Source of the DNA: a candidate division WOR-3 bacterium
GTDB lineage: Bacteria > Hydrothermota > 32-111
Direction: 5' to 3'
NCBI GenBank assembly: GCA_037481815.1
Contig: JBBFKX010000002.1
Coordinates: 128,001 to 192,000 of the forward strand
DNA length: 64,000 nt
Part shown: positions 5,892-56,044 of the stretch, piece after piece
Numbering within the stretch: the first letter of the stretch is position 1
How the letters are laid out: each line of letters begins with the position of its first letter
Made by a program: the position numbers and the translations under genes
The notes under the pieces: generated by a model
What the model was told of the DNA's origin: nothing
Databases searched by the model: none
What the model saw: the letters and a program-made list of their open reading frames with translations, nothing else

Positions 5892-5964
5892 CTGGGGCGG
5901 TAGGATTCGAACCTACGAATGCGGGAACCAAAATCCCGTGGCTTGCCAGCTTGCCGACACCCCA
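5892..5964 (-). tRNA. tRNA-Gln(UUG)
   Basis: Acceptor stem TGGGGTG/CGCCCCA, anticodon arm CGGGA-TTTTGGT-TCCCG, T-loop GGTTCGAATCC; CCA not encoded. Confidence 0.96.
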
Positions 5965-5996
5965 AAAAGTTCTAACTAAATTTTCTTTTTTAAAGT

Positions 5997-9101: not shown

Positions 9102-9270
9102 TTTTACTCAACGCTCCTACTGGACAGACTTTTATACATTTATCACACTTAACACAACCTTCATTTATCTGTAACCTATCCTTATACATCACAATAACCT
9201 TAACTGGACAGACAGCAACACAACCACCACAAAGTCCACATTTCTCTTTTTCGACTTTTATATATTCCAT
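9094..9270 (-). CDS. 2x[4Fe-4S] ferredoxin, 58 aa (not in ORF track)
   Basis: Hand translation MEYIKVEKEKCGLCGGCVAVCPVKVIVMYKDRLQINEGCVKCDKCIKVCPVGALSKNG; two CxxCxxCxxxCP motifs; GGAG RBS; overlaps the reductase start. Confidence 0.93.
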   Translation of the reverse strand: MEYIKVEKEKCGLCGGCVAVCPVKVIVMYKDRLQINEGCVKCDKCIKVCPVGALSKNG

Positions 9271-9272
9271 AT

Positions 9273-11831: not shown

Positions 11832-11834
11832 ATT

Positions 11835-12560
11835 TCACCTCTTTTTGATTAGATTTTTTAAAAGCACTAAATAATATTGTAATTTTATATAAATATGTAA
11901 AATCATCAAGAATATAAAAATAATCCCTGTAAAATTATGTGTATATACAAGTTTTGAAATATTTTTAAGATATAAAACTCCATACTCTCTCAAAACAAGC
12001 ATCGATGATGTGAAAAGTACCGGAACAAAGGTGAATATGAGCAGAATGTTAACGATTCTGTTGATATCACAGATATCAACAGGAATTTTTTTTCTTTTAG
12101 AAAAATAGATAAGCACAACTCCAAAAAGAAAAAGGGGAAAAAGAACAAATATAAAATATTTATCACCATCACCAAAAGATCCATCCAAATTATCTTTTTT
12201 TTCATGTGTGGAAGTCGTTGGCAAATTTATATCAGTTTTTTCAACTGGATCAAAATTTTTATCTTCTGGTTGATTCTGTTCAGTTTCATAACCAGTCAAA
12301 TTTTCCTGAACTTTTGCTTCATCCGTTTTTTCCTCTAAAACGGTTTCACTTTTGTTATCAGTGCTGACATTCAAATCCGTATCCTGAACGCTATCAGCAA
12401 GATCCTGTGAAAGATCACATATAGAATCATTATTCTCATCTGTATACCTTCCACATCTACCTGGATACGGGTCATTTTTTTCATCAAATGGACAATACTG
12501 TTCAGAAAAAATGTAAACAAAAACGGATATCAGTAAAAATATCAACAATATTTTTTTCAT
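11835..12560 (-). CDS. Membrane protein with Cys-rich N-terminal motif and DUF4405-like TM domain
   Basis: Signal peptide, CPFDEKNDPYPGRCGRYTDENNDSICD, acidic linker, three TM helices with two His (HNFTG...LHIY). Confidence 0.65.
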   Translation of the reverse strand: MKKILLIFLLISVFVYIFSEQYCPFDEKNDPYPGRCGRYTDENNDSICDLSQDLADSVQDTDLNVSTDNKSETVLEEKTDEAKVQENLTGYETEQNQPEDKNFDPVEKTDINLPTTSTHEKKDNLDGSFGDGDKYFIFVLFPLFLFGVVLIYFSKRKKIPVDICDINRIVNILLIFTFVPVLFTSSMLVLREYGVLYLKNISKLVYTHNFTGIIFIFLMILHIYIKLQYYLVLLKNLIKKR

Positions 12561-12568
12561 AGGTTTAT

Positions 12569-12597
12569 AAAATATCACAAGAAGGAAAAATTGTCAA
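12569..12597 (-). promoter_or_regulatory. Possible promoter directly before a start codon lacking an RBS
   Basis: TTGACA-17 nt-TATTTT with TGn extension; ATG follows 8 nt after the -10 box. Confidence 0.45.
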
Positions 12598-13313
12598 CGT
12601 TTATAGATTTTTCTATAACTTTTTAAAAATTTTTTTCTTTCCTCTTCCTGAAATCTTTCGGTAGCATAACTTATAGTTATCGATGAAAGATCTTCATAAT
12701 TTTCGTTTAAAAATTCTTTCAGGATATGTTCCCCACAATTTTTTCCAACCTCTCTTAACATCCATCCTGTTGCCTTTTTCAAAAGTTCATTCTGATCCTT
12801 GATCAACTTTTTTAAAATCTTTAAAGGAAAATCACATTTTTTTCTTTTTATAAAATAATATAATGAAACAACTGAGATTCTCTTTTCCCATAAATTTTCA
12901 GAATCTGAAAGATCCTCTATCTTCCCATATTCATCCTTTTCAAAGGAGTATCTACCAAGAATTCTATAAGAGGATGTATCAACAAGATCCCAGTTGTTAA
13001 CATATTTTAAGTTTTTCAGGTAAAAATCTAAAATTTTTTCTTCTTTCTCTAAACGATTATCATATTTTAAAACTAATATATTCAATGCAAGAAACCTTAC
13101 CTCGTGGTATCTTGAAGATATCAGTTTCTGTAAAACATTCCAACCAACATCTTTATATTTTTTTGCAAAAATTTTTAAAGTTGGTGTATCTATACCCAAA
13201 AATTCATCTCCTTCTCCATACTCTCCTTTTTTCGTTTTAAAAAACCTTTTATATACCATCTTTTTTTCTTCATCCTTCAATTCAAACAACTCTTTTAAAA
13301 TTTTTGAATACAT
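12594..13313 (-). CDS. DNA alkylation repair protein (AlkD-like)
   Basis: FFKTKKGEYGEGDEFLGI, VNNWDLVD, LWEKR, KATGWMLREVGK. Confidence 0.9.
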   Translation of the reverse strand: MYSKILKELFELKDEEKKMVYKRFFKTKKGEYGEGDEFLGIDTPTLKIFAKKYKDVGWNVLQKLISSRYHEVRFLALNILVLKYDNRLEKEEKILDFYLKNLKYVNNWDLVDTSSYRILGRYSFEKDEYGKIEDLSDSENLWEKRISVVSLYYFIKRKKCDFPLKILKKLIKDQNELLKKATGWMLREVGKNCGEHILKEFLNENYEDLSSITISYATERFQEEERKKFLKSYRKIYKR

Positions 13314-13314
13314 C

Positions 13315-14295
13315 CTAATATCCTTTTTCAAGATCAACTATATTTTTTAGTTTTTTGCCTTCAAGGAGATTTTTAATATTTTCCACTGTAAAAACTATAT
13401 CACCTTTTTCTGCATCTTCTGTGTGTGCACCTTTATGGGGTGATATTACAACATTTTCGAGTTCATATATCGGATAGTTCGAAGGTAGTTTATTGTTCTC
13501 TTCTCCATCCTTTGGATAGTTGTACCACACATCAAGTGCAGCACCTTTTAGAATCTTATTCTTTAAACTTTCATATAAAACCTTTTCATCAACTATTCTC
13601 CCTCTTGAAACATTCACAAGATATTTTCCCTCAAGTAAAGAAATATTTTTTTCGTTTATAAGATTTTCGCTCTCCTTCGTTAAAGGTAAAGTCAGGAAAA
13701 CTATTTGACCAAATCTTAAACCATCAGATAAATTATCTGTTAGAAAATCAAAATTTTCAGGATTTTCATTCTTTTCAAGTTTTCTTTTGATTCCCATTAC
13801 CTTGCAGTTAAAAATTTTTAGAAGACGAGCGAGTTCCTTTCCAATACTTCCTGTTCCAACTATGGTACATTTTTTTTCACGTATCGTATCCCAGTATTCT
13901 CTATAAAGTCCCTCTCTATGCCATATTCCTTTTTTTAGATCGTTATGAAAAAGAACGATCTTCCCAAGAAGTGCAAGAGTCAATGCTAAAGCCCTTTCTG
14001 CAACATATCTTGTATTCTCATGAGAATTACAAACAACAACCTTTTTCTCTTTAAGAATATCAAGTGGGAAATTGTTTAAACCAGCGTAGGGGACAAAAAG
14101 ATATTTTAAATTTTTCGAAAATTCAACCTGGTCTTTTTTCAAACGATAAGTTATAAGAACATCGGTGAATTCGATCTCTTCTTTTCCAAACTCTCTTTTA
14201 ACTTCTTTGAAAAGATGTTGTTTAAAATTATGCCTTAATTCTTCTATCTTTTTTTTCCAGTATTCAGACGAACAACCTGCAAAAGTTATCTCCAT
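13315..14295 (-). CDS. D-isomer-specific 2-hydroxyacid dehydrogenase
   Basis: IVGTGSIG, LPLTKES, VNVSRG, AALDVW, ISPH. Confidence 0.9.
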   Translation of the reverse strand: MEITFAGCSSEYWKKKIEELRHNFKQHLFKEVKREFGKEEIEFTDVLITYRLKKDQVEFSKNLKYLFVPYAGLNNFPLDILKEKKVVVCNSHENTRYVAERALALTLALLGKIVLFHNDLKKGIWHREGLYREYWDTIREKKCTIVGTGSIGKELARLLKIFNCKVMGIKRKLEKNENPENFDFLTDNLSDGLRFGQIVFLTLPLTKESENLINEKNISLLEGKYLVNVSRGRIVDEKVLYESLKNKILKGAALDVWYNYPKDGEENNKLPSNYPIYELENVVISPHKGAHTEDAEKGDIVFTVENIKNLLEGKKLKNIVDLEKGY

Positions 14296-42873: not shown

Positions 42874-43950
42874 TTACTTCCCCTGTTTTTTTAACTCTTC
42901 ATATTTCTTGTATTCTTCTTTTGCTTTGTCGTTCATTTTCATTCTCGAATAGCAGTCGGCTTTTATCAGATAAAGATCGCTTATCTCAATTCCACTTTTG
43001 GAGATATATTCATCGATAATTTTTATAGCATCAGCATAATTTTGATTTTTGTAATATGCGAATCCCAAGTTCAACATCGATTCAAAATCATCCTCTTTAA
43101 CCTTCAAAGCGTTCTCAAAGTTAACAACTGCTTCTTTGTAGTTCTTTTTTTCATCAAGATAGATTTTCCCAAGTTTGAAAGAAACATCATTTTTGTATGT
43201 CGAGAGTTTGGATTTCATGGTTGAATCTGAAGATTCATAAATTTTGTTGAAACTGTTAAAATTCTTTATTGCCTCATCAAAATTTTTCTTTGAATATGCT
43301 ATTTCTCCAAGCCAGTATATGATCTGTGGATTTTCAGCATCTATATCTTTTGCTTTATCCAGATACTTCTTTGCTTCATCGAACTTTTCGATTCCAATAT
43401 AATATTTTGCAACATTGAAAAAGAGTGAAAGATTTTTTGGGTTCTTTGAAACAGATTTTTCTATAGTTTTTGTCATGTTCGTTTCATCACCAGTTTCAGC
43501 GTAAAGTAGTACAAGATAATCATAGTTTATAGAAGTATCTTTAACTTCCTCCGCTTTTAAAAGATATTTTTCATACTTTGATTTATTCTCTTTACTATCC
43601 TTATTTCTCAAGAAACCCGTTCCCGCATTGAAGAGTACTGGCCAGTAAAATTCAACATTCTCTTTCATCTCTTTTAAAACTTGTCCTGTAGTATCCTTTT
43701 CAAGTGCGATAATAAAATACTCTGATGCTTTATCAAACTCACTCTTTGAACCGTATGCCTTACCCATCCAAAGATACGCCTGTGGGTTGTTCGGTTCAAG
43801 TTTTATCGCTTCGTTGAACTGAACTATCGCTTTATCAAAATCGTTCTGTTGCATATATATTATACCTGATGACATATATTGATTGTTACATCCAACCATA
43901 AGTATAACTACCATTGCAACGATTAACAACAAATTAAAAAACCTGTACAT
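42874..43950 (-). CDS. TPR-repeat lipoprotein
   Basis: Lipobox LMVGC followed by multiple TPR repeats. Confidence 0.85.
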   Translation of the reverse strand: MYRFFNLLLIVAMVVILMVGCNNQYMSSGIIYMQQNDFDKAIVQFNEAIKLEPNNPQAYLWMGKAYGSKSEFDKASEYFIIALEKDTTGQVLKEMKENVEFYWPVLFNAGTGFLRNKDSKENKSKYEKYLLKAEEVKDTSINYDYLVLLYAETGDETNMTKTIEKSVSKNPKNLSLFFNVAKYYIGIEKFDEAKKYLDKAKDIDAENPQIIYWLGEIAYSKKNFDEAIKNFNSFNKIYESSDSTMKSKLSTYKNDVSFKLGKIYLDEKKNYKEAVVNFENALKVKEDDFESMLNLGFAYYKNQNYADAIKIIDEYISKSGIEISDLYLIKADCYSRMKMNDKAKEEYKKYEELKKQGK

Positions 43951-43989
43951 TTAAAACCTCCTGAAAAAAGAGCAGAATTTTAGTTTTTC

Positions 43990-44017
43990 ATTTTATCAAA
44001 AAAAAGTTTTTTGTCAA
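43990..44017 (-). promoter_or_regulatory. Promoter upstream of the TPR lipoprotein-rplM-rpsI block
   Basis: TTGACA-16 nt-TAAAAT with TGn extension. Confidence 0.6.
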
Positions 44018-44058
44018 TAGTAAGAAGAAAGAGGTATACAATAATATCTTTTTAATAA

Positions 44059-44529
44059 TTACCGAAACAGGTTATCAATTATGTTGTCAACTTGATTTTT
44101 GAAATCTCTGTCAAAAGTTATTTTTTCATCCTCCTCTTCCTTCATAAGTTTAACTATATTCTCACTTAATTTTTTCATCATCGTTTGAACAACTCCTATT
44201 ATGGTATCTTTTGAAAAAAGAGAAACTATAATTATCTCATCGTTTACTGCAAGATAAAAAAAGGAAAATTTTTTTCCTTCCTGAAAGAGTGTAAAAAAAT
44301 AATCCTCTTTAACAAGTTTTGCGATACTTTTTGTTGCATTGAAAATTCCAGCACATAAGGCACCTAACGATTGAGTGTAATAGTTATCCTTTTTCATACC
44401 CATCTGAAAAAGCACCTGACCTGCACTATTTATAATAAGAACATTCAGGACCTTTGTATCCTGAATGAATGTCTTCAAAAACCGTTCAACATCTTTGACG
44501 GTTGGCTCATCAAGAACAAGTTTTTTCAT
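44059..44529 (-). CDS. Roadblock/LC7 protein, MglB-like
   Basis: LIINSAGQV, SLGALCAGIFNATKSIAKLVKE..F..LFQEG; C-terminal DNIIDNLF resembling the MglB C-helix. Confidence 0.85.
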   Translation of the reverse strand: MKKLVLDEPTVKDVERFLKTFIQDTKVLNVLIINSAGQVLFQMGMKKDNYYTQSLGALCAGIFNATKSIAKLVKEDYFFTLFQEGKKFSFFYLAVNDEIIIVSLFSKDTIIGVVQTMMKKLSENIVKLMKEEEDEKITFDRDFKNQVDNIIDNLFR

Positions 44530-44535
44530 AAAATT

Positions 44536-44880
44536 TTATATATTCCCCTGAAGTTGTGCTGCGATATTTTTTATTTGTATTATCAAAGCCCCAATGTTCA
44601 CATTCTTTTCAGCAAGAGCAAACAGTATAAACTTTTCTTTTGAAATGAAAAGTACTTCACCTTTTTCAGTGTATATCGTTGAAAATATTGGAAGGGAGTC
44701 GGTACTCTTTCCCAAACTTTTTTCCATCTCACTGTTTATCTTTGCAACCATCGCTCCAAGCAGTTCCGCCATTTCACTTTCATAGAAAATTTTATCAACG
44801 ATGAGTCCATCTTTTGTAAGAACAGCAACACCTTTAACTCCAGTTATCTCCATTATCTTCTCAATTTTCTCTTTTATCAT
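44536..44880 (-). CDS. Roadblock/LC7 protein
   Basis: ITGVKGVAVLTKDGLIV...NVNIG. Confidence 0.88.
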   Translation of the reverse strand: MIKEKIEKIMEITGVKGVAVLTKDGLIVDKIFYESEMAELLGAMVAKINSEMEKSLGKSTDSLPIFSTIYTEKGEVLFISKEKFILFALAEKNVNIGALIIQIKNIAAQLQGNI

Positions 44881-45593
44881 TGTTCAAGCACCTGTTTTAT
44901 ATTTTTTAACAACTGTTTCGCTTTTATAAGTATAAGACCTATCTTTACAACCTCTTCAGTGAAAATCCCCAGTATATATCCATTACCTTTAAAAAGATAT
45001 ATTCTGACTTTTCCAATTTCGATAAAGATCCTGTCTATCAGACCAAGATCGGTTTTACTTATAGAATCCTCTGAAACAGAAAAAATCGTCGAAAAAAGTG
45101 CAGAGGTGATTTCAGGGTCAAGGTTTTCCAGTATCTTTGCTCTTATAACAAGGCCTGATTCTTCAATTATGATACTCCCCAAAACTCCATTTATAGAGTT
45201 TATCTCTTCAAGCGATCTGTCAAGTAAACTTTCCGCCTCATTTGCGGTTATAACATTGTCCTTTTCTATCTTTTGCAAATCTTCTTTTTTTATCTCAGAG
45301 TTTTTTGAAATCCCACCCTCTTCGACTCTCACAGGTTGTATTAAAGATCTTACCGAAGGATCATCGGGAAATTCATTCAAAAGTTGATTCAAAACTTCTG
45401 TGGCAGATGGATCGTTCAATTCCTTTAAAGATCTATAAAGCAGAATTTTTGCATCCTTTATATCGGGAAATTCTGAAAGAATAAGTTTACAGTAGTTTAT
45501 AGTTTCGTTGAACGCTTTGTTCTTATAAAGATCCTCAGCGATCATTATAAGTAGTGAAATACTATCCCGATCAACTTTCATTCCTTCATTCAA
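44877..45593 (-). CDS. TPR + Roadblock/LC7 domain protein
   Basis: N-terminal TPR-like helices; INGVLGSIIIEESGLVI...VKIGLI. Confidence 0.85.
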   Translation of the reverse strand: MNEGMKVDRDSISLLIMIAEDLYKNKAFNETINYCKLILSEFPDIKDAKILLYRSLKELNDPSATEVLNQLLNEFPDDPSVRSLIQPVRVEEGGISKNSEIKKEDLQKIEKDNVITANEAESLLDRSLEEINSINGVLGSIIIEESGLVIRAKILENLDPEITSALFSTIFSVSEDSISKTDLGLIDRIFIEIGKVRIYLFKGNGYILGIFTEEVVKIGLILIKAKQLLKNIKQVLEQ

Positions 45594-46701
45594 ATTTACC
45601 TCCTAAAAGTTCATCAAAGATTTTTTGACACTCTTTAAGAGATTCTACAAGTTTTTCAACCTTACTCATCTGATCCGGTGTTTGGAGATTATCATAAAGA
45701 GAAATCAGTTCATCTATACTCTTCTTTACATCTCCCCTTTTAAAGTAAGCAAAAGAATTATACTTTTTTATAAAAGGATCATCGATTCCCTCGTTTTTTG
45801 CTATCAGAGTGAACTCGTTTATTTTATCAAACTGATTAGTTGCAAAGAATGAATAAATAAGCATTCTGTAAGCATCGAGATTTTTTGGATCCTTTTTAAC
45901 ATAATTTTTCAACTCGTTTATAGCTTTATCGAACAATCCATCATTGAAATAATGTTTTGCAACATCAAAACTACTTTCCACATCACCTTTTTGAGCGCCT
46001 TCGATAATAACTATACCAAGAGTTATCATTCCATATATCAATTTTGCTATTTCAAACTCATCACCATATTTTTCGGCGATATCTTTAATCGTGTTTTTAC
46101 CATTTATCATCGAAAAAATTTCCCACTCTTTTGGTTTAAGATCCAAAAGGTCCATTTTGTCTGGATTGTCAGAGATTTTTGGAATCACCGATGAGTTTGG
46201 AATCTTTGCGGATAACCTTGACCATTCATCTATTCTTCTTGAGCCCTCCATTATCAAAGATTCGGTTTTGATTTTGAATTTGAACAGGTTGTCGAGAATG
46301 AAATTACCTTCCTCAAATTTGAAATATCCTTCTCTCCATTCAAAAAGTTTGTATATGGTATCTTCGATTCTGAGTTGTAAAAATTTTCTGAACTCGTTTT
46401 CAGTCATAATGTTCATCTTTATTATCTCTTTTGCGATTTCAACATCATCGTTTTGAATTTTGTTCATTATCCTCTGTTCATAAAATTCTTTGGTTATTTT
46501 CCCAGCTTTTATCAAAAGCAAAGGCAAAGTTATCCCTTCCATACTAACATACACAACATTCCCATTTTCAAAATAAACGTTCGCTTTTTCTTCTTTATTT
46601 GAATCTATTTTTAATATTCCACTCTTCTGATTGAAAGATAGTATCTGAAACAGATCTATGAGATTCAGTTCACTGATTGGTCCTTCAATAGCCACATCCA
46701 C
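45586..46701 (-). CDS. DUF4388 + TPR protein
   Basis: AIEGPISELNLIDLFQILSFNQKSGIL, LFEWREGYFKF, LIMEGSRRIDEW. Confidence 0.88.
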   Translation of the reverse strand: MDVAIEGPISELNLIDLFQILSFNQKSGILKIDSNKEEKANVYFENGNVVYVSMEGITLPLLLIKAGKITKEFYEQRIMNKIQNDDVEIAKEIIKMNIMTENEFRKFLQLRIEDTIYKLFEWREGYFKFEEGNFILDNLFKFKIKTESLIMEGSRRIDEWSRLSAKIPNSSVIPKISDNPDKMDLLDLKPKEWEIFSMINGKNTIKDIAEKYGDEFEIAKLIYGMITLGIVIIEGAQKGDVESSFDVAKHYFNDGLFDKAINELKNYVKKDPKNLDAYRMLIYSFFATNQFDKINEFTLIAKNEGIDDPFIKKYNSFAYFKRGDVKKSIDELISLYDNLQTPDQMSKVEKLVESLKECQKIFDELLGGKFE

Positions 46702-46703
46702 TC

Positions 46704-49412
46704 CTATTCAAAAATTGATATCCAGTTTCTTGCTGCTTCTATCGCTTTTGCGCTCTTCTGTGCAAATTCTGATTCAGGTGAATTCTTTACAACAAAATTC
46801 CACCTTTCCATAGCTTCCTTAATATATCCTTCCTTTGCTATTATCTTTGCAAAATTGAAATTCGCTTCAGGATTTGCGGGATCTATTTTTAGAGCGTTTT
46901 GATAAGCATCCTTTGCAACATCAAAATTTTCGATCTCCTGACAGACCGAACCTATTCTTAAAAATGCTCTGAGGTTGTTTGGATCAATCTGAACAATTCT
47001 TGTATAGATCTGAATAGATTTTTCAAAATCCTCGACTAATTCATAGATCGTTGCAAGTTCCCACAAATAACCAAGATTCTCTACATCTTTACTTATCAAC
47101 GATTCAAGAATTTTGATCGATTCATCGTACATTTTCATACTTCTTAAAACTATCGCTTTTTTGTAAAGGATATCTAGATTCTCTGGATCCTTATTCAGGA
47201 TTCTTTCGTATATTTCGAGTGCATCCCTATCTCTTCTCTGACTGACATATATTTCAGAGAGATTCGTTAGAGTTTCAATATTTTCAGGATCCTTTAAAAG
47301 TATCTCACCGATAATTTTTATCGCCTCTTCAAGGTTTCCATTTTTCCAGAGTAACATCGAATATAGATTCAAAACATCTATTTTATTTCTATCCTTTTCA
47401 ATTATCTTTGAAAGATATTCTATCGGTTCTGAATAGATCCCTTTGTTATAGAGTAGTTTGGAGAGTTTTAAAACCACTTTTTCGTTAAGAGGAGAGAGCG
47501 AAACTATTTTTCGATAATACTCTTCTGCTTCTCCATAGATCTGTTTTATATTGTAAACATCAGCGATTATTTCAAACATTTCCACATCGCACTCATCTTT
47601 TCTTACAACTTCAAAAGCACTCTGTGAAGCAAGATCATATTCACCCTTTTCAAAATATTCTTTTGCTTTTTTTCTCTTCTCCTCAAGTTGATCGACTTCC
47701 TTTAATTTAAGATCCTCTTTTTCAAAAGTATCCTCTGTTTCCTCTTCAAAAACACCTGTAAAAATATCTGAACTCTTCTCTTCTCCGATTGTGAAACCTT
47801 CTAGTTGTTCTGATGATGTAACCTGAACATCCTTTGACAGACTACCACTTATCAAAACATCCACTTTATCTGCGTAATAGTCAAGTCCAAGTTTATATCT
47901 TGTCTCAACATAATAGGGATTAAGTTTTAATGCTTCTTTCGTATATTTGAGTGCATCCTCATACCTTCCAACTTTTGTTAAGGTGAAAGCAAGGTTGTAG
48001 TATGCCTCAGCGAAATTTTCATCATACTGGATCGCTTTTTCAAAAACTTTTATCGCATCCTCAAATTTTCCTTCCTCTCTATAGATTATTCCAAGATAAT
48101 TGTATGTTAAAGGATAATCACCTTTTATCTCAAGAACTTTATCGATATATTTTTTCGCCTCTATAAAATTTTTATTTTCGATAAAGATTATCGATAGATT
48201 CAAAAGAGCATCAACATAATCATCCCTTATCTGTAAAGATTTGTTAAACATTTTTAATGCTTCATCCGTCTTATTTTTATGAAGCATTGCGATTCCAAGG
48301 TTATTGTATGCCATCACATATGATGGATCCATCTTTATAGATTTATTATAACAATCTATCGCATTTTCAAGTTCACCTTTTCTGTGAAAAGCGATACCCA
48401 TATCGTTGTACGCTTTTGCTGCAAACGATTCATCTTTAAGTGCAAGTTTGTATTCCTCTATCGCTTTATCGTTTTCTCCAAGAAGAAGATAGATCTCACC
48501 GATCTGAATGTGAATCAGCGCTCGATCCGGCTCAACAGATTCAGCCTTCTTAAACTCTTTTAGCGCTTCATTGAAAAGCCCTTTGTTCCGAAAACCAATT
48601 CCAAGTGTAAAGTATGTTAAAAAACTGTTCGGTTGAATCGAAACATTCGATTCTTCCTGAACAAAACTCTGATACATCCCCTGCTGATAAAAATCTATTC
48701 CAAGGTTTGCCTGTGTTTTTCCGTAAGCGGGATTCAACTTAATCGCTTTTTTTGTTTCCTTAATCGCGTCATCAAAAAGCCCTTTCTCTCCATAAACAAA
48801 GCCCAAAAGAAAATGTGCTTCAGCAAGGTTGGGATCGAGTTCAAGAGCTTTTTGGAATTCTTTTATAGCAGAATCAAGTATTCCCTTGTTATAGTAAACC
48901 TCACCAAGCATCGAGTGTATTTGAGCTGAATCGGGCTGTGTTTTTAAAGCTTTTCGATACTCTTCGATCGAATCATCATACATACCTAAAGATTTATATA
49001 TCTTCGCAAGGTTCAACCTCGCATCAACAAATGATGGGTTACTCTTTAAAATCTTCTTATACTCAGCGATAGCATCAAGCGATTTTCCCATGTTGTTCAA
49101 AGCTTCTGCAAGTTTAAACCTTGTGTTCAAATCTTCGGGATTCTTTTCAAGAACTTCTCTGTACTCTTTTATCTTTTCATCATACATCCCTGTTTCTTTG
49201 TAGATGAGTTCGAGATTCTTTTTCGCCAGGGTAAATTTCGGATCTATCGCAAGTGCTTTTTCAAGTTCTTCAATCGCTTCATCATAAAGACCTTTGTTGT
49301 AATACACAACAGCAAGATTGTTGTGTGCACCAGCATCCTTTGGATCTATCCTCTGGGCGAACGACTTTAAAACTCTCTTTTCTGCTTCAGATATTTGAAC
49401 CTGTTTTTTCAT
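46704..49412 (-). CDS. Large cytoplasmic TPR-repeat protein
   Basis: Many TPR units (AHNNLAVVYYNKG, AYNNLG...) split by an acidic linker; no signal peptide. Confidence 0.92.
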   Translation of the reverse strand: MKKQVQISEAEKRVLKSFAQRIDPKDAGAHNNLAVVYYNKGLYDEAIEELEKALAIDPKFTLAKKNLELIYKETGMYDEKIKEYREVLEKNPEDLNTRFKLAEALNNMGKSLDAIAEYKKILKSNPSFVDARLNLAKIYKSLGMYDDSIEEYRKALKTQPDSAQIHSMLGEVYYNKGILDSAIKEFQKALELDPNLAEAHFLLGFVYGEKGLFDDAIKETKKAIKLNPAYGKTQANLGIDFYQQGMYQSFVQEESNVSIQPNSFLTYFTLGIGFRNKGLFNEALKEFKKAESVEPDRALIHIQIGEIYLLLGENDKAIEEYKLALKDESFAAKAYNDMGIAFHRKGELENAIDCYNKSIKMDPSYVMAYNNLGIAMLHKNKTDEALKMFNKSLQIRDDYVDALLNLSIIFIENKNFIEAKKYIDKVLEIKGDYPLTYNYLGIIYREEGKFEDAIKVFEKAIQYDENFAEAYYNLAFTLTKVGRYEDALKYTKEALKLNPYYVETRYKLGLDYYADKVDVLISGSLSKDVQVTSSEQLEGFTIGEEKSSDIFTGVFEEETEDTFEKEDLKLKEVDQLEEKRKKAKEYFEKGEYDLASQSAFEVVRKDECDVEMFEIIADVYNIKQIYGEAEEYYRKIVSLSPLNEKVVLKLSKLLYNKGIYSEPIEYLSKIIEKDRNKIDVLNLYSMLLWKNGNLEEAIKIIGEILLKDPENIETLTNLSEIYVSQRRDRDALEIYERILNKDPENLDILYKKAIVLRSMKMYDESIKILESLISKDVENLGYLWELATIYELVEDFEKSIQIYTRIVQIDPNNLRAFLRIGSVCQEIENFDVAKDAYQNALKIDPANPEANFNFAKIIAKEGYIKEAMERWNFVVKNSPESEFAQKSAKAIEAARNWISIFE

Positions 49413-49417: not shown

Positions 49418-50035
49418 CTACCTGTTTAAAAAATCGAGAAGTTTCTTTAAAGATATTGGATCAGGCAAAAGTATTAGATACCCTTTTAACGGATGTGGAT
49501 CATCCTCAAAAGTGAACTCTGTTTCAACACAGAAAACAACATCCTTGTTCGCACTGAAATCGATGTATGCTGAAGTTACTACAGCTGATCCTATATCAAT
49601 CACAAGATTTGGAACCGATGGTAAAATCAACATGTTCAAAAAATCACTCATCGCTGTAAGATATGAACTTATAACTATGTTTGCAACTTCTTTGATCGCT
49701 GATTGTTCTATCTCACTTAAAATCGTTGTCGTTCCAACAGGTTTTCCCATAACCATATCGACAAGAAGCATCGATTCATCTCTTGGAAATATCAAAAGTG
49801 TTCTACCTGTTAAATCTCCAAGAAATTTCACAAGAACACCTGTTACGATCTCGTCCTGGTTATTGATTATCCTGTATATCTCTTCTGAAGATATTATGTG
49901 AACTTTTGGAACCGAGACCATTACTCTTTTGTTCACAAGTTGTGAAAGAACGGTCGCAGCATGTCCTCCACCAATGTTGGAGATCTCTTTGATTCCATCC
50001 AGATGAAAATCTTTTAAGTTGTTAAAATCTATCAT
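49418..50035 (-). CDS. cheC: CheY-P phosphatase CheC
   Basis: KEISNIGGGHAATVLS and KEVANI (two ExxN sites); PSVP. Confidence 0.93.
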   Translation of the reverse strand: MIDFNNLKDFHLDGIKEISNIGGGHAATVLSQLVNKRVMVSVPKVHIISSEEIYRIINNQDEIVTGVLVKFLGDLTGRTLLIFPRDESMLLVDMVMGKPVGTTTILSEIEQSAIKEVANIVISSYLTAMSDFLNMLILPSVPNLVIDIGSAVVTSAYIDFSANKDVVFCVETEFTFEDDPHPLKGYLILLPDPISLKKLLDFLNR

Positions 50036-50038: not shown

Positions 50039-51919
50039 TTACCCCTCTTTAGCCATCGAAACAACACCTGGAACATCAACTATGAAAGATGGCATTCCGT
50101 TGTTTAAAATTGACACACCTGCAAGCCCATGAATACCTGAAAGTATTCCCTTAAGTGGCTTGACAACTACCTCTGATTGTTCTAGGAAATTATCCACAAG
50201 TATCCCGTATAAAGAATCCTCCACTTCAACAAGAACTATGGAATATTTGTCCCTATCTTCAACTTTTTCACATTTAAAAATTTTTGATAACCTTATAAGC
50301 GGTATTATTTGATCTCTCAATACGAAGACCTCTTTTTGCATAACCGTAAATATTTCGTTTTTGTTTATGTCTATCGTCTCCACGATGTGAGTTAAAGGTA
50401 TTATATAAACTTCACCACTCACCTCGACTATCAAAGTTTTTATTATGGCGAGTGTCAAAGGAAGTTTTAAAGTGAAAACTGTTCCTTTATCTTTCTGGGA
50501 CGAAATTTCAAGTGTTCCACCTATCTGTTTTAAAACATTGTAGACAGCACCAACACCCACACCTCTTCCTGAAATATCGTTAACCTCTTCTTTGGTGGAG
50601 AAACCTTCATTCATTATCAACGAATAGATATCGTTTTCATTTAGATGTTGTAATTTTTCTTCATCTATCAAATTTAATGACAATGCTTTTTCTATAATTT
50701 TATTTTTATCAAGTCCTTTACCATCATCTGAAACTGTTATCAAAACTCCATTTTTAACCCTTTTCGCTTCAAGTATTATCGTTCCGGTTTCATCTTTTTT
50801 ATTTTTTATCCTTTCCTGTTGAGTTTCTATTCCATGATCCACAGCATTCTTCAGAAGATGAAGCAATGGATCCGCAAGGGAATTCAGAATCGCTCTATCA
50901 AGTTCAATATCTCTTCCCTTTATTATAAAATTTACTTTCTTTTTCAACCTGTTTGAAAGATCCCTGATATACCTTGGATACCTATCAAAAACCTGTCCAA
51001 CTGGAACCATCCTTATCTTCATTATTTCATCCTGAATATTTGAGATTATCTTTGAAGTTGAGTTCAGAGAATTTATCAATTCTTCATTCTGTAAAGAGTA
51101 TGCTATCTGTTGCAACCTCCCTCTGGCTATAACAAGTTCTGAAGCATAGTTCTGGAGATTGTCAAGGCGTTCGAGTGAAACCTTTATATCCTTTTTTTCT
51201 ACAACGATTTCCTGATCACTTTTTGCTTCTTCTTTCACAAGGAAAGCATCTTTTATTTCAGGTATACCTTTAATCTCATCTATAACCTTTTCAATTTCAG
51301 TTGTATCTTTTATGTAAAGGGTGATCTCATCTTTAAAATTTTCCTTCATTATCGAATCAAAGTCCGGATCACTTTTTATGAAAATATTTCTATCCTGAAG
51401 ATTTTTAATAACGACGAAAGCTCTCGCTGATTTTAAAACAACATCTTCAGAAAAAATTATTTTTATCGCTTTTTCTGATGATAGAGAAACTTTCTCTATA
51501 GGGATCTTTTTTGTTTTTACTTCCTCTATCTTTTTCGTTTCCTTAACGATCTCAGAACCTGTTTTTATAGATTCAATCACCTTTAAAAAACTTTTTATAA
51601 TATTTTCATCTACATCTTTTTTATGGACAAGGGATTGTATATAATCTGTCCCCTTTAAGAGTAGGTCTATAAGTTCAGTGCTTACCTGTAATTTTTCATT
51701 TCGTATAAGATCCATAACATCTTCTATCGAATGGGAAATTTTTGTAATCGAAGAATAGCCCATTGAAGCTGCCATACCCTTTATCGTATGCATACCCCTA
51801 AAAATCGAGTTTATTGCCTCTATATCGTTCATATCCTTTTCAAGTTTCAAAATGGAATCAGAAACCTGCTCAAGGTACTCTTCAGCTTCACTTATGAACA
51901 ATTCTTCATAATTTGTCAT
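50039..51919 (-). CDS. cheA: Chemotaxis histidine kinase CheA
   Basis: FRGMHTIKGMA (Hpt), P2 domain, HLLKNAVDHG, SDDGKG, GFST, SGRGVG, C-terminal CheW-like P5. Confidence 0.97.
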   Translation of the reverse strand: MTNYEELFISEAEEYLEQVSDSILKLEKDMNDIEAINSIFRGMHTIKGMAASMGYSSITKISHSIEDVMDLIRNEKLQVSTELIDLLLKGTDYIQSLVHKKDVDENIIKSFLKVIESIKTGSEIVKETKKIEEVKTKKIPIEKVSLSSEKAIKIIFSEDVVLKSARAFVVIKNLQDRNIFIKSDPDFDSIMKENFKDEITLYIKDTTEIEKVIDEIKGIPEIKDAFLVKEEAKSDQEIVVEKKDIKVSLERLDNLQNYASELVIARGRLQQIAYSLQNEELINSLNSTSKIISNIQDEIMKIRMVPVGQVFDRYPRYIRDLSNRLKKKVNFIIKGRDIELDRAILNSLADPLLHLLKNAVDHGIETQQERIKNKKDETGTIILEAKRVKNGVLITVSDDGKGLDKNKIIEKALSLNLIDEEKLQHLNENDIYSLIMNEGFSTKEEVNDISGRGVGVGAVYNVLKQIGGTLEISSQKDKGTVFTLKLPLTLAIIKTLIVEVSGEVYIIPLTHIVETIDINKNEIFTVMQKEVFVLRDQIIPLIRLSKIFKCEKVEDRDKYSIVLVEVEDSLYGILVDNFLEQSEVVVKPLKGILSGIHGLAGVSILNNGMPSFIVDVPGVVSMAKEG

Positions 51920-51922: not shown

Positions 51923-52291
51923 CTATTTCAAATTTAAAACTCTGTTGACAGATTCAAGAACCCTTGATGGTTGAAAAGGTTTAACGACAAAATCTTTGGC
52001 TCCCGCCTGAATCGCCTCTACTACAAGCGATTGTTGTCCCATGGCGGAAACCATCAATATCTTTGCGTTTGGAAACTCTTTTATAATTTCCCTGACAGCA
52101 TCTATACCTGACATATCAGGCATTATGATATCCATAGTTACAAGATCCGGCTGCAATTCTCTGTACATCTGCACAGCCTGAGATCCTGTCCCCGCCTCCC
52201 CACAAATTTCAAAACCTTCTTTTTTCAGAATATCTGCGATCATTCTTCTCATAAAAATTGCGTCATCAACTATAAGCACCCTTGTAGCCAT
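51923..52291 (-). CDS. cheY: CheY response regulator
   Basis: VDDAIFMR, TMDIIMP, SAMGQ, VKPF. Confidence 0.96.
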   Translation of the reverse strand: MATRVLIVDDAIFMRRMIADILKKEGFEICGEAGTGSQAVQMYRELQPDLVTMDIIMPDMSGIDAVREIIKEFPNAKILMVSAMGQQSLVVEAIQAGAKDFVVKPFQPSRVLESVNRVLNLK

Positions 52292-52302: not shown

Positions 52303-52701
52303 CTAATTTTTGTTGATAATATTTTTCAAATTTAATATTATAATCTCTTTACCATCTTTTTCAACAAAACCTTTTATATATTCACCTTCACTCTCTTCAT
52401 CTTTTACCTTTGAAACGTTTATTATGCCTTCTATTTCATCTATTAGAAGGCCATACTTTTCTTTGTTTTTTTCACAGATGATTATATAATTTTCCTCAAC
52501 CTTTTTCATCATTTTCAGTTTTTTCTTCAACGAGATCAAAACAACAACATCTCCCCTTAAGTTTATTACACTTTCGATATAATCTTCAGCGTTTGGAATT
52601 CTAATACCTTTTATTCTCTCATAAATATCTATTATCTCGGATATCTTTATCCCATATATTTTACCTTCGATCTTAAACGTTATATACTGTTCATTTTCCA
52701 T
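52303..52701 (-). CDS. cheW: CheW coupling protein
   Basis: IPNAEDYIESVINLRGDVV, GLLIDEIEG. Confidence 0.93.
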   Translation of the reverse strand: MENEQYITFKIEGKIYGIKISEIIDIYERIKGIRIPNAEDYIESVINLRGDVVVLISLKKKLKMMKKVEENYIIICEKNKEKYGLLIDEIEGIINVSKVKDEESEGEYIKGFVEKDGKEIIILNLKNIINKN

Positions 52702-52705: not shown

Positions 52706-55700
52706 TTAAATCTCCTTCCATGTGAATTCTATTGGAAGAACACTCAAAGGATGCGCATAGAAACCATGAACATCGTCATGTATCGCGATCTGCCGATAGT
52801 TGTGAGTTAAAAATACCCAGGGTGCATCATCGACAATTATTCTTTCAATATCCTGATACAATTTATTTCTTTCTTCAAAATTAGTTGTCATCCTTGCTTT
52901 TAAAATGAGATCGTCCACCTGTTTGTTCGAGTAAAAAGAGTTGTTTCCACCATCACCAAAACTTTCACTATGGAAAAGTGGATAAACGAAATTGTCAGGT
53001 TCACCTGTATCACCAGCCCAACCCATCATAAAAAGATCACATTTCCCGGAGTGCATCCTGTCAAGAAGTTCCACCCATTTCAAGGGAACTATTTTTATCC
53101 TGATACCTATTTCCTGCCACATACTCTGTAAGAGTTCCGCCCTCTTTATAACCCTTTCAGAATTTGAACATATCATTTCAAAACTGTGATTTATACCGTT
53201 AGGAAAACCGGCTTTTAACATCATCTCTTTTGCTTTTGATGGATTGTAAGGATAACCTTCAAGAGATTTGTTGTAACATGGAAGTGCTGGGGGAAATACA
53301 CCTTTTGAAATGATCCCGAGACCAAACATTGTTTCGTTGATGTACCTTGATTTATCGGTAGCATAGTTTATTGCTTTTCTTATCTCTTTTGTTAATGTGA
53401 TCTCATTTTTTCTTGACATGTTGAAACCAACATACTGAACATCAAGAGATGGTATCGTTAGAACTTTTATATCAACTCTGTTCTGTTTTTTTAATTTTTC
53501 AAGATCCTCAGCGTTTACAGAACAATAATCTATGTTTTTCGCCAGGAGTTCTTCAAACTCATCCTCTTCCCTTTTTATCTTTATTTCAACATTTTCAACA
53601 AAAGGTTCTCCTCCAAAATAATGTTTGTTGGATTCCATAAGAATCCTTTCATCATCAACATATTTTAAAATGAATGGTCCACAACCGATGCAGTTGTTTT
53701 TCATCTTTTCATCGGAAAATTTTACCATATCCTTTTTTATTACCGCAAGACATATCACAGCAAGATTTGATAGGAATGGAATATAAGGATATTCAAGAGT
53801 AAACTTTATCGTATGTTCATCGAGTATTTCAATTCCCTCAATATCACGGGCTCTTCTTTTTATGTAATTCTGGGCTCCCTTTATCATATTCACAAAAGGA
53901 GCGTTTGGAGTTAAAAGAACATTTTTTATGCTCTCTTTCACATCCTCTGCTGTTACAGGTGTTCCATCATGAAAGTAAGCGTTTTTTCTTAAAAAGAAAA
54001 CCCACTCCGTTGCATCAGAGTTGATATGCCAGTATTTTGCAAGTGCTGGGATAACACTTGTATCCTTTCCAAATCTCACAAGTCCAACATGGATCTGTTG
54101 TAAAACTGTATTACTCGTTGAATCACCAACGAGTGCTGGCTGCCAGTGAACGGGCAGGTTGTTCATTATGAATTTAAACCTATTCTTTTCAGGATCCCTT
54201 TTGATTATGAACTTCTCTGAAAATGTTTCCTGTATACCTGAAACCATCTTTAATGACTCTTCACTTTTCAAAATATCATTTTTAAAAATCCTGTTAAGTT
54301 CATCAGCCATCTGGTTTATTTTTTCAGATTTTGAAATTATGTTCATGTATAGTTTGACAATCTCATCCTTTAAAATTTCCTGCTGGGTTATGGTATCGTA
54401 AATCTCTTTCAAAAGATTTTTAAAATTCACTGCTGAGTCCTTTACATCCTTTACAACCTTGTTGCTCGTTTCTATTGAGAAAATAATCTTTTCCGCAGAA
54501 TCGAGTTCTTTATCAACAATGCTTAAAACATCGTGTAAAAGTTTTTCCATATTTTTTACTATATCTTTTATCTCAAGTGAGGCATCAGTTGCTTTTTTTA
54601 TGAGTTCTTTTGTCTGTGAAACTATAACAACAAGATTCTGTTGATATTTGCCTGATCTTGCTGCCTCGATCGAAGCATAGAGAGAAAGCAATTTTGTCTG
54701 TTCTGAAAGTTCTTTCAATTCTAAACTCGTTTCAAAAATTGATTTCAAATTTTTTGAAATTTCGTTGAAATCATCTTTAAGATTGACTATCATCTCAAGT
54801 GTTTTTTCGATATCATTTTTCACATTAACTACACTCGTTGAGAACTCGTTTACTGCACCAAGGAGAAGGTTAAGATTATCCTCTATCTCTCCAACATTTT
54901 TTAGCATCAACTGTTCACTTTCCTCTATTGATTCGATGGCACCGAAATAGTTTTTAACAACCTTTGATTGTTCATCGTTTCTTTCGATGAACTCGTTTAT
55001 AACTCCCATCGTTTGATCTATAATGTTTTTACTGTTTTCAAGGAAAAATTCTATCTTTTTGAAAATCTTTATCTCTGTTGCTATAGAATTATCTAATGAT
55101 TTCTTTTCATAAATAAGATCTGACAGAGGTTCAAGTTGTTGCATAAGATTCGATAGTCCAACCTTTACATCGGATTGTGTTTTAACCATTGTCATAAGTT
55201 TTTCGGTCGACTGTAAAGAAACATCAATTATATTTTGAACACTTTTGTTAAGGTCGTTGATCAGATTTTTATTTTTATCCTGTATGTTTATATATTCTTT
55301 CATCTTGTCCGACTTCAAAACAATATCAGAAAGGTTCATCTCAACATTTTTTAACCTGAAATTCAAAAGATCTATGTTTCTTTTTAATGCATCGATTCTG
55401 AACTTAATGTTATCGACAGATTCAATAACATTTTCTGTTTTCACTTTTATGTTCTGAATACTTTCAGGAATCCTTTTTGTTAGATTGAATGTTTTGTTCG
55501 CAAGAAGAAGCATCCTGTCAGCGATAACTTCAAAACCTCTTCCACTCTCTCCAGCATGATACGATTTTATCCCTGCGTTTCTTGCTGCCGATTCAGTCAT
55601 CTGTGCTATACCAATTATGATCTCGGTTATTTGACCTATGTGTTTTGAATACTCGTTAAATGGTTTTACAATATCGAGAATCTGGGATGAACCACTCGTA

Positions 55701-56044
55701 AAAATATTCAACTGGTTTATCACCTGATCAAACTCTTTGACACTATTTTTGATACTTTCCGTTGAGTTTTTTGAATAATCTATTAAAACATCCGCAGCTT
55801 CAGAAACTATCTGTATCGAAGCGTAAAGTTTGTTTCCTTTGTCTTCAATCTTTTCTATTTCATCAACCAATCCTTTTTCTTCAAATGAAATCGAAGAGAG
55901 TATAGAATGTGCGTTTCTGTTTATCTCAAGAAGTTCATCATCATCTATTTTTATAGTTTTCAAAGCATAGATCAGGGCTGTTGGATCAAATTCCTCTTCC
56001 TGTATTACTCCCTTTCTTTTAAAAAAATTGAAGAAAGACACCAT
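52706..56044 (-). CDS. Soluble chemoreceptor-like protein with two MCP signalling tips fused to a family-5 solute-binding domain
   Basis: Tip 1 AGESGRGFEVIAD; tip 2 SEQTKLLSLYASIEAARSG; C-terminal PALAKYW, FHDGTPVTAEDV, GCGPF, IRKAINYA, GWAGD; no TM or signal peptide. Confidence 0.88.
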   Translation of the reverse strand: MVSFFNFFKRKGVIQEEEFDPTALIYALKTIKIDDDELLEINRNAHSILSSISFEEKGLVDEIEKIEDKGNKLYASIQIVSEAADVLIDYSKNSTESIKNSVKEFDQVINQLNIFTSGSSQILDIVKPFNEYSKHIGQITEIIIGIAQMTESAARNAGIKSYHAGESGRGFEVIADRMLLLANKTFNLTKRIPESIQNIKVKTENVIESVDNIKFRIDALKRNIDLLNFRLKNVEMNLSDIVLKSDKMKEYINIQDKNKNLINDLNKSVQNIIDVSLQSTEKLMTMVKTQSDVKVGLSNLMQQLEPLSDLIYEKKSLDNSIATEIKIFKKIEFFLENSKNIIDQTMGVINEFIERNDEQSKVVKNYFGAIESIEESEQLMLKNVGEIEDNLNLLLGAVNEFSTSVVNVKNDIEKTLEMIVNLKDDFNEISKNLKSIFETSLELKELSEQTKLLSLYASIEAARSGKYQQNLVVIVSQTKELIKKATDASLEIKDIVKNMEKLLHDVLSIVDKELDSAEKIIFSIETSNKVVKDVKDSAVNFKNLLKEIYDTITQQEILKDEIVKLYMNIISKSEKINQMADELNRIFKNDILKSEESLKMVSGIQETFSEKFIIKRDPEKNRFKFIMNNLPVHWQPALVGDSTSNTVLQQIHVGLVRFGKDTSVIPALAKYWHINSDATEWVFFLRKNAYFHDGTPVTAEDVKESIKNVLLTPNAPFVNMIKGAQNYIKRRARDIEGIEILDEHTIKFTLEYPYIPFLSNLAVICLAVIKKDMVKFSDEKMKNNCIGCGPFILKYVDDERILMESNKHYFGGEPFVENVEIKIKREEDEFEELLAKNIDYCSVNAEDLEKLKKQNRVDIKVLTIPSLDVQYVGFNMSRKNEITLTKEIRKAINYATDKSRYINETMFGLGIISKGVFPPALPCYNKSLEGYPYNPSKAKEMMLKAGFPNGINHSFEMICSNSERVIKRAELLQSMWQEIGIRIKIVPLKWVELLDRMHSGKCDLFMMGWAGDTGEPDNFVYPLFHSESFGDGGNNSFYSNKQVDDLILKARMTTNFEERNKLYQDIERIIVDDAPWVFLTHNYRQIAIHDDVHGFYAHPLSVLPIEFTWKEI

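Follow-up and report, generated by a model that had tools for sequence, protein, structure and literature searches.

A soluble double-hairpin chemoreceptor with complementarily derived signalling tips and a fused DppA-like domain in a candidate division WOR-3 bacterium

What does a chemoreceptor build when its one chain carries two signalling tips, each of which is canonical on only one side of its turn? The question is raised by a gene on the reverse strand of a 64,000-nucleotide stretch of DNA from a candidate division WOR-3 bacterium (GenBank assembly GCA_037481815.1, contig JBBFKX010000002.1, positions 128,001 to 192,000; this whole stretch is called the window below). The gene encodes a soluble receptor with two tandem hairpins and a fused solute-binding domain, and structure prediction and covariation suggest that hairpin 1 pairs with hairpin 2, probably in place of the pairing between identical subunits. 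An earlier note on this DNA had read the protein as a single-chain pseudo-dimer with two complementarily degenerate tips; it was silent on the C-terminal SBP_bac_5 sensor, on the absence of a membrane segment and on the relationship to proteins resembling DosM of Vibrio cholerae, which are all treated here.

Architecture, family and tip sequences

The receptor gene and the parts of its product, as delimited by translation of the open reading frame (ORF), Pfam matches, AlphaFold2 (AF2) models and alignments, are as follows.

52706..56044, reverse strand: whole receptor gene, stop codon included, encoding the 1112-aa soluble double-hairpin chemoreceptor (ORF translation)
55556..55981, reverse strand: helix N1, residues 22-163, descending helix of hairpin 1 (AF2 helices 22-31 and 35-163)
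55487..55621, reverse strand: tip 1, residues 142-186, turn at E166 (aligned to Tsr 6s1k_E 352-427, to Tm1143 and to the family)
55109..55540, reverse strand: helix C1, residues 169-312, ascending helix of hairpin 1 (AF2; contacts N2 in the predicted complex)
55097..55108, reverse strand: hinge or loop, residues 313-316 (EKKS), midpoint between the tips (AF2 helix break in both models)
54656..55096, reverse strand: helix N2, residues 317-463, descending helix of hairpin 2 (AF2 and family alignment)
54587..54721, reverse strand: tip 2, residues 442-486, turn at K466 (MCPsignal match 418-562 and family alignment)
54212..54643, reverse strand: helix C2, residues 468-611, ascending helix of hairpin 2, leading to the sensor (AF2; contacts N1 in the predicted complex)
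54125..54211, reverse strand: linker between coil and sensor, residues 612-640 (predicted local distance difference test, pLDDT, 59-61; no regular secondary structure predicted)
52709..54124, reverse strand: DppA/HbpA-like SBP_bac_5 domain, residues 641-1112, taken as a cytoplasmic sensor

With each half of the coil scored alone, the Pfam family MCPsignal (PF00015) matched residues 91-274 with 62.8 bits (E 4.7e-17) and residues 418-562 with 54.0 bits (E 2.4e-14); the gathering cut-off is 34.6 bits, and both scores are far beyond chance. SBP_bac_5 matched residues 664-1029 with 273 bits over profile positions 2-366 of 368. The turn residues of the two tips stand at equivalent positions exactly 300 aa apart, and each hairpin arm is about 145 residues long. 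Over the whole protein the highest Kyte-Doolittle mean of any 19-residue stretch is 1.51, none reaching 1.6, so there is no membrane segment. Lacking any hydrophobic segment, the whole receptor, its solute-binding domain included, should be cytoplasmic.

As a reference for the canonical tip we used chains from the PDB (T. maritima Tm1143 and E. coli Tsr) and two ordinary methyl-accepting chemotaxis proteins (MCPs) of the same genome. The two tip peptides quoted in the earlier note lie in the protein where it had placed them and without inserted gaps, as residues 146-182 (IAQMTES...LLLA) and 446-481 (LSEQTK...TKEL). Its complementary pattern is likewise correct when taken to mean likeness to the canonical sequence: tip 1 departs from that sequence ahead of its turn and tip 2 beyond it, and alignment to the PDB chains and to the family shows neither tip to be canonical on both sides of its turn. 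Helix N1 ends in a derived invariant motif, R155-N156-A-x-I159-K160-x-x-H163-A-G. The N side of tip 1 is derived, and the C side carries the canonical G168-R-G170-F171-x-V. In tip 2 the N side is canonical, and the C side, which has YQQNL and no G-R-G-F motif, is conserved in a form of its own.

Full-length relatives of the same architecture were gathered by three routes: a word search gave 14, one of them 96% identical and labelled candidate division WOR-3, a representative library gave 12 at 19-28% identity, and a profile search gave four more. Pfam found SBP_bac_5 together with MCPsignal in 12/12 of the library relatives, and two MCPsignal stretches in 10 of them. When whole genomes of the phylum were scanned, 61 of 272 had a collinear homologue (42 of the 181 high-quality genomes; 29 of the 110 genera), with ORFs of 1047-1139 aa except for one cut at a contig end and without internal stops in any of the 61. 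A metagenome scan with a coil-only query returned at least 50 further family members among at least 78 loci. The loci from a scan of genome contigs were mostly ordinary solute-binding proteins (SBPs; 79 loci, with three full-length family members and one partial member). The sequences used below came from the phylum scan and from the coil-only metagenome scan.

The complementary pattern is kept by the orthologues in this family, which occurs in those 61 genomes of the phylum. What did not stand up is the description of the divergent helices as eroded. The columns of the divergent halves rank with the best conserved of the coil even though overall identity between the proteins is only 15-30%, and these halves are for this reason a conserved derived motif rather than the product of erosion. 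In a 69-sequence alignment, where the lowest overall identity to the window protein is 24%, N156, G168, G170 and E460 are invariant, and conservation reaches at least 90% at R155, A157, I159, A161, H163, A164, G165, F171 and V173 around tip 1 and at L453, L455, Y456, A462 and L471 around tip 2. The family consensus of tip 1 reads ...RNA-x-I-[KT]-[AS]-[YF]-H-A-G-x-x-G-[RK]-G-F-E-V..., and that of tip 2 reads ...L-L-[SG]-L-Y-A-x-I-E-[AS]-A-R-x-G..., followed by the conserved non-GRGF helix, ...L-x-V-[IV]-[VT]-x-x-[IT]-K-x-L... The strict tip-1 motif is found in 57 of the 61 phylum loci; the other four have Q, R or K for H163.

These data bear on the idea that one of the signalling domains is a non-functional duplicate in decay, that is, erosion in the literal sense. 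The departure of each tip from the canonical sequence in one half is what such decay would look like. Against this, the divergent halves are highly conserved in proteins that otherwise share little identity, every family member examined retains both domains, and the phylum matches are free of stops. We find the idea of decay hardly credible and rejected it on the conservation of the divergent halves.

Probable pairing of the two hairpins and a probable docking face

In the full-length and the coil-only model alike, AF2 built four equally long helices; in the coil-only model they lie at 35-163, 165-312, 317-463 and 465-611, with a break at 313-316. The coil-only model has a pLDDT of 84.2 and a predicted template modelling score (pTM) of 0.55, the full-length model 76 and 0.44. 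Across the family the midpoint loop has indels and Pro, and the distance from tip to tip varies in non-heptad steps (281, 283-287, 292, 294, 295, 299-302 and 306 residues, with one protein at 324). As these steps are not multiples of 7, a continuous coiled-coil helix between the tips is excluded. One unbroken central helix from tip 1 to tip 2 was accordingly rejected, the Pro and indels at the midpoint and the AF2 break adding to the spacing. The midpoint loop fits a closed hinge and an open one alike.

For the analysis of covariation, the helices were anchored ungapped at the tips, mutual information with average product correction was averaged along 7-wide bands of constant height difference d, and the in-register band was ranked against all other offsets (129 in total) in 144 sequences (effective number of sequences, 67). 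Only band sums were used, because the single top pairs were dominated by clade effects. In all four neighbouring helix pairs the global maximum (rank 1 of 129) lay within |d|<=4. This was so for the intra-hairpin controls N1-C1 (z 2.0, d=3) and N2-C2 (z 2.3, d=2) and for the two test pairs, C1-N2 (z 2.0, d=-1) and N1-C2 (z 3.3, d=-3), the last of which gave the strongest band. The diagonal pair C1-C2 showed no in-register signal in the same 144 sequences (rank 32 of 129), and the in-register band of N1-N2 ranked 2 of 129. A version in MAFFT coordinates gave the same N1-C2 peak, at i+j = 624-631. In a set of 94 sequences analysed in six variants, N1-C2 ranked 1-5 and N2-C2 ranked 1-3 in all of them, and a reduced alphabet weakened all covariation signals.

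We also predicted the complex of residues 20-313 with residues 317-612 from a 56-row alignment, the prediction covering the heterotypic pair only. The interface score ipSAE was 0.62, 0.63 and 0.62 in the three runs, and the best of three controls reached 0.00; the ipSAE mark that we used is reached by 116 of 157 solved complexes and by 2 of 215 mismatched pairs. From run to run at least 91% of the contacts recur, the partner pLDDT is at least 81, and the 423-425 contacts run along the whole length of the hairpins. The most confident contacts are 122-509, 52-576, 66-565, 199-432, 195-436 and 213-418. Since these have i+j of 627-632, the tips are level in the model, and the register is that of the covariation peak. 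Together, the ipSAE values and the rank-1 bands of N1-C2 and C1-N2 favour the earlier note's proposal that the hairpins pack together as a four-helix bundle like that of an MCP homodimer, and they place the tips level.

Which parts of such a bundle could dock the kinase is suggested by the residues of Tsr that touch the CheA P5 domain or CheW in both array models tabulated in PMC13098124 (Table 1), namely Q374, I377, L380, N381, V384 and R388. They were mapped with an offset of 225 to full-length Tsr (6s1k_E 352-427 = query 127-202), and with the 300-residue repeat for hairpin 2. In N1 they fall on M149, S152, R155, N156, I159 and H163, and in N2 on Q449, L452, L455, Y456, I459 and R463. N2 keeps the hydrophobic stripe, with three identical residues, two conservative changes and Tyr in place of Asn; the stripe of N1 is instead polar and basic and nearly invariant. 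Only N2 thus keeps the Tsr-type contact residues, so that the sequences fit the single CheA/CheW-binding face expected by the earlier note, and N2 is probably the one conventional docking helix. In keeping with docking on N2, the CheW encoded next to the receptor retains the hydrophobic receptor groove, having hydrophobic residues at 4/5 of the receptor-contact positions of T. maritima CheW.

In the predicted complex, residues 152, 155, 159 and 163 of N1 and 452, 455, 459 and 463 of N2 lie outside the hairpin-hairpin interface, and residues 156, 160, 456 and 460 lie inside it. Heterotypic pairing would put N156 with Y456, K160 with E460 and F171 with L471. A hetero bundle would also be the simplest reason for the complementary pattern, because the canonical halves N2 and C1 would then be neighbours, as would the derived halves N1 and C2. 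The derived N1/C2 face could make a modified receptor-receptor contact or bind a new partner, for which the second CheW and the tetratricopeptide repeat (TPR) and PATAN proteins encoded in this genome are candidates.

The arrangement that we favour can be put as follows. One chain would supply the tandem hairpins N1-C1 and N2-C2, joined by a short variable loop, with the sensor after C2, and hairpins 1 and 2, their tips level, would form a hetero four-helix bundle that replaces the homodimer bundle. The pairing would most likely be made within one chain by fold-back at the hinge. The resulting composite tip would be asymmetric: where N2 lies next to C1, the hydrophobic stripe would dock CheW and CheA-P5, and where N1 lies next to C2, the strictly conserved polar and basic stripe would have to serve another contact, with another receptor or a further partner.

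Known systems and alternative arrangements

The closest architectural parallel is DosM (V. cholerae VC1403), a receptor of class F9 that is described in PMC7534058 and PMC9321776 as an extended rod that carries its two signalling domains at opposite ends and spans two CheA/CheW layers. According to the latter source, its partner is a triple CheW (CheW3), and 98% of its homologues have no sensor domain. The window receptor resembles DosM in being soluble and in having two tandem MCPsignal domains. In a library search its coil was collinear with proteins of 630-667 aa, at 21-24% identity and in one stretch across both tips; one of these, P0068, aligned from 36-574 to 57-591 in one stretch with an E of 5.7e-17. 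We call these proteins DosM-like by their architecture, the name being given without comparison with the sequence of VC1403. In 6/6 that were tested they consist of two MCPsignal domains only, both tips are canonical, and the tip spacing is exactly 300 residues in the four of six where the pattern found both tips. Hairpin 1 scored higher against DosM-like hairpin 1 than against hairpin 2 in 4/4 comparisons. For hairpin 2, the corresponding preference for DosM-like hairpin 2 was ambiguous, being seen in 4/4 single-sequence comparisons, two of them marginal, and in 2/4 profile comparisons.

Unlike the DosM-like proteins, whose tips are both canonical, the window receptor has complementarily derived tips, and it differs from DosM further in its fused C-terminal SBP_bac_5 domain of 470 aa, in the single-domain CheW and in the absence of a detected FliG. 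The receptor is of the DosM architectural type, with a gained cytoplasmic DppA-like sensor and two complementarily specialised tips. In P0068, P0109 and P0162 the second tip reads LAVNG, LAVTG or LAVSG, as opposed to LALNAA in the first, so that at the position of Tsr N381 two of these three have T or S in place of Asn in the second tip; the sequences hint that a mild asymmetry of the tips may be general in double-domain receptors.

The ordinary transmembrane MCPs of the 44H type share with the receptor the MCPsignal fold, the same sole CheA and arms of similar length (154 residues after the tip in MCPs of this genome, about 145 here), but have one hairpin per chain, form homodimers with symmetric canonical tips and carry membrane segments. 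A likeness of another kind is that to engineered single-chain receptors. Mowery et al. 2015 (PMC4692393) built single-chain Tsr~Tsr so that the inner and outer subunits could be given different sequences, and the same text cites Greenswag et al. for soluble single-chain Tar constructs for kinase control. As is proposed for the window receptor, two subunits lie in one polypeptide, and one chain supplies all four helices of the bundle. Those constructs differ in being artificial and made from identical subunits; the Tsr one is membrane-bound, and subunit swapping was shown for it. The text also notes natural soluble single-chain MCPs, of R. centenum and others, as unexplored, with swapping possible.

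The general concept of a single-chain, double-domain receptor is thus not new, as DosM (PMC7534058, PMC9321776) and natural single-chain MCPs (PMC4692393) are already in print. Our literature search turned up no description of an asymmetric double-domain receptor or of one fused to SBP_bac_5; the supplementary homologue tables of PMC9321776, which may include relatives, were outside that search. What the window family appears to have done is to give the inner and outer subunits different sequences naturally, which was the aim of the Tsr engineering. In the chemoreceptors that have been studied, identical subunits stand in different places, one at the trimer axis and one facing CheA/CheW. This makes their separate contributions hard to dissect, and it was to dissect them that single-chain Tsr was engineered (PMC4692393). 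The family appears to be the natural counterpart of such a construct, with pseudo-subunits that have diverged already and only one canonical docking helix. It offers a ready-made system for asking what each face contributes, whether an array requires its dimers to be symmetric and what the real arrangement of DosM-type receptors is.

We give the heterotypic composite-tip reading a probability of roughly 0.6, and the following points weigh against it. To our knowledge DosM is the only characterised type of double-domain receptor, and the DosM-like proteins found here share the 300-residue tip spacing. The pTM of the AF2 monomer, at 0.55 for the coil and 0.44 for the full length, does not settle the packing. 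The covariation effect is modest (z 2.0-3.3), and the in-register maxima could owe something to variability that changes gradually along the helices, though C1-C2 shows no such maximum. In the 94-sequence set the positive control N1-C1 failed (ranks 4-68), and C1-N2 was unstable (ranks 1-96). The complex prediction may have passed merely through the likeness of the hairpins to solved MCP homodimers, and it is not independent of the covariation, because the predictor was given our own alignment. Both methods, moreover, are blind to whether a contact is made within a chain or between chains. Of the single-chain pseudo-dimer put forward in the earlier note, the pairing of hairpin 1 with hairpin 2 is thus supported, and its folding within one chain would give the same contacts as a swapped antiparallel dimer.

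Such a dimer, a rather improbable alternative in our view, would be extended and domain-swapped in the manner of DosM, with the hinge open and hairpin 1 of chain A paired with hairpin 2 of chain B and vice versa. The resulting rod would be about 44 nm long, would present an identical composite, asymmetric tip at either end and would hold both SBP domains at its middle; it could bridge the two CheA/CheW layers of a cytoplasmic sandwich array. Complex prediction and covariation fit it equally, as its hairpin 1-2 contacts are the same, and it gains from the collinearity of the DosM-like proteins with the coil and from the tip spacing held in common. DosM itself is described as an extended rod spanning two baseplates (PMC7534058), and subunit swapping is shown by the engineered single-chain Tsr (PMC4692393). 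The genome (1.58 Mb, 95% complete) does not favour such a rod. Its three CheW domains sit in three separate proteins, namely CheA, the 132-aa CheW and a 245-aa CheW on contig C3, so that there is one CheA and no F9-type triple CheW. Of its four MCPsignal genes, three encode ordinary MCPs that all have hydrophobic segments, which leaves no second soluble receptor for a sandwich array of the type proposed in V. cholerae. Two sensors of about 470 aa in the middle of a rod would be unusual and perhaps crowded, and the midpoint, with its Pro and indels, behaves as a loop. Between fold-back within one chain and the antiparallel swapped rod, the former appears somewhat more likely.

An ordinary parallel homodimer is a different matter, as its homotypic bundles 1-1' and 2-2' would present two different symmetric tips, one or both with a different partner (for example, tip 2 with CheW/CheA and tip 1 with another protein). 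All solved MCP signalling domains are homodimers, in established knowledge and among the PDB matches, each hairpin alone passes the MCPsignal threshold, and the structure predictions, which covered the heterotypic pair only, are compatible with this arrangement. The in-register covariation of N1-C2 and C1-N2, however, would be unexpected if the hairpins never touched. Homotypic bundles would also bring two Tyr456, two Lys160 and two non-glycine turns (Q468, N470) to face each other, and would reduce to coincidence the complementary split, in which the canonical halves C1 and N2 are the neighbours in a hetero bundle. We consider a homotypic dimer unlikely.

The composite-tip reading can be taken further, to an obligate natural single-chain pseudo-dimer in which evolution has split two jobs that fall to identical subunits in all chemoreceptors studied so far: N2/C1 would dock CheW and CheA-P5, N1/C2 would make a new contact with receptors or a partner, and the cytoplasmic peptide-binding sensor would drive a pilus or polarity output rather than flagella. 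The derived N1/C2 face would then consist of R155, K160 and H163 with the non-glycine turn of C2. We offer this extended form tentatively, in both its parts, and expect the odds to lie against it. If it were true, each receptor would have a fixed orientation, and the lattice would be unlike the universal trimer-of-dimers array.

Sensor, operon and likely output

The closest solved relatives of the sensor are HbpA (3m8u, E 1.9e-64) and DppA (1dpp, E 3.9e-60), though it is not a DppA equivalog, scoring 225 bits against the cut-off of 1005 of the NCBIfam model DppA_dipep (NF043070). DppA D408 aligns with D1012, an Asp that is invariant in the family, and R355 aligns with an Asn. In DppA we take D408 to bind the amino group of the peptide and R355 the carboxylate. 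A reasonable guess is that the ligand of the sensor is peptide-like and has a free amino group. We found neither an export signal nor a lipoprotein anchor: the SBP domain starts at about residue 641, behind a soluble coil of 610 residues, in a protein without a hydrophobic segment, and as there is no export signal the fused domain must act in the cytoplasm. No genes for permeases or ATPases of ABC (ATP-binding cassette) transporters lie beside the receptor, its neighbours being recR, ybaB, cheW and cheY.

DppA is the binding protein for Tap-mediated dipeptide taxis in E. coli (PMC8050422). There, too, a DppA-type SBP_bac_5 protein is the ligand-binding element of a chemoreceptor pathway, but the E. 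coli protein is separate and periplasmic and docks on a transmembrane receptor, whereas the window domain is fused and has no export signal. The family thus presents a DppA-type binding domain as an intracellular sensor fused to a receptor. Another protein in which the binding domain is fused and not free-standing is P0206 (1277 aa), with Ser/Thr protein kinase domains and SBP_bac_5.

The receptor is followed on the same strand by an operon of chemotaxis genes.

52303..52701, reverse strand: cheW, directly downstream of the receptor, 132 aa, a single CheW domain (Pfam CheW, 88.9 bits)
51923..52291, reverse strand: cheY, 122 aa (Pfam Response_reg, 107 bits)
50039..51919, reverse strand: cheA, 626 aa, with Hpt, P2, dimerisation, HATPase and CheW-like P5 domains (Pfam)
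49418..50035, reverse strand: gene for a CheC-type phosphatase of phosphorylated CheY, 205 aa (Pfam CheC and CheX)
42874..49412, reverse strand: further downstream genes, encoding a TPR protein (902 aa), a DUF4388/PATAN protein, three Roadblock/LC7 proteins and a TPR protein (358 aa) (Pfam)

The product of cheA is the only CheA-type protein that a genome search with the CheW domain found, and the cheC product scores 177 bits against the NCBIfam model CheC_Thtogales, below its cut-off of 250. The genes at 42874..49412 are a possible output or polarity module. Among them, the DUF4388/PATAN protein and the three Roadblock/LC7 (MglB-like) proteins are encoded in a row at 44059-46701 on the reverse strand. 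No MglA-type GTPase is encoded in the window; one small GTPase is encoded in a cluster on contig C3. Ribosomal genes lie beyond the second TPR gene, and recR, ybaB and dnaX lie upstream of the receptor.

That cluster (C3:54000-70000, at about 4835-13656) is a second che cluster and encodes a PilT-like ATPase (367 aa), the Ras/Arf-like small GTPase (206 aa), a STAND/AAA NTPase, a PATAN(DUF4388)-TPR protein, CheR, CheD, CheB, a TPR protein and the 245-aa CheW, which has an N-terminal extension of about 90 residues. The clustering of PilT-like, small-GTPase, PATAN, CheR/CheD/CheB and CheW genes suggests type IV pili or cell polarity as the target of the Che pathway. Six ATPases of the T2SSE family pass the cut-off in this genome; four have the size of PilB/GspE and two that of PilT. 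A search for FliG_C gave no hit, which in an assembly that is 95% complete is not proof of its absence, and the bacterium is probably non-flagellated. The single Che system is linked to pilus- and polarity-type genes, and the locus brings to light, in an uncultured phylum that is probably non-flagellated, a Che pathway associated with genes for PilT, a small GTPase, Roadblock proteins and PATAN proteins.

The soluble receptor encoded with this operon would serve the single Che pathway of a bacterium that is probably non-flagellated. Its SBP domain would bind a dipeptide, a glutathione-like peptide or another ligand with a free amino group and send a signal down C2 to the tip, where it would modulate CheA and so the phosphorylation of CheY, with control of type IV pili or of polarity as the likely output.

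CheR, CheD and CheB are encoded on contig C3 although the coil of the receptor has no canonical methylation motif: for the consensus that we took for a methylation site, [ASTG][ASTG]xx[EQ][EQ]xx[ASTG][ASTG], a pattern search of residues 1-640 gave 0 strict matches and one loose match, at 602. Conserved polar positions do occur about 88 residues from the tips, A75-S/T-x-Q/E78...E82 in N1, Q255 in C1 and E547/S551/Q555 in C2 (residues 73-86, 255 and 547-555, at about 55787-55828, 55280-55282 and 54380-54406). This is the height at which ordinary MCPs carry their methylation sites, and the canonical consensus is absent there in the receptor.

Two of the three ordinary MCPs of the genome have canonical tips and the 154-residue arm mentioned above. 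Another ordinary MCP (C2:306882-307343, 575 aa) is an unusual multi-pass receptor, with roughly six hydrophobic segments among residues 1-220, and gave no match to the simple tip pattern.

Linkage of the receptor to che genes is conserved. Where about 1 kb of downstream flank was present, cheW lies downstream of the receptor in 30 of 31 phylum loci and cheY in 29. In metagenomes both lie downstream in 37 of 50 loci, some of the other 13 being too short. A metagenome subgroup (L148-L151, L197 and L202) has neither cheW nor cheY despite sufficient flank. One metagenome-assembled genome carries two receptor paralogues on two contigs: L003 is followed by cheW-cheY-cheA, and L001 has no che neighbours within 7 kb. 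The tips of L001 have diverged further, tip 1 reading ...AENIEVKAYQARDEGKGLAVIA and tip 2 ...LAIFSKLEKSHS...

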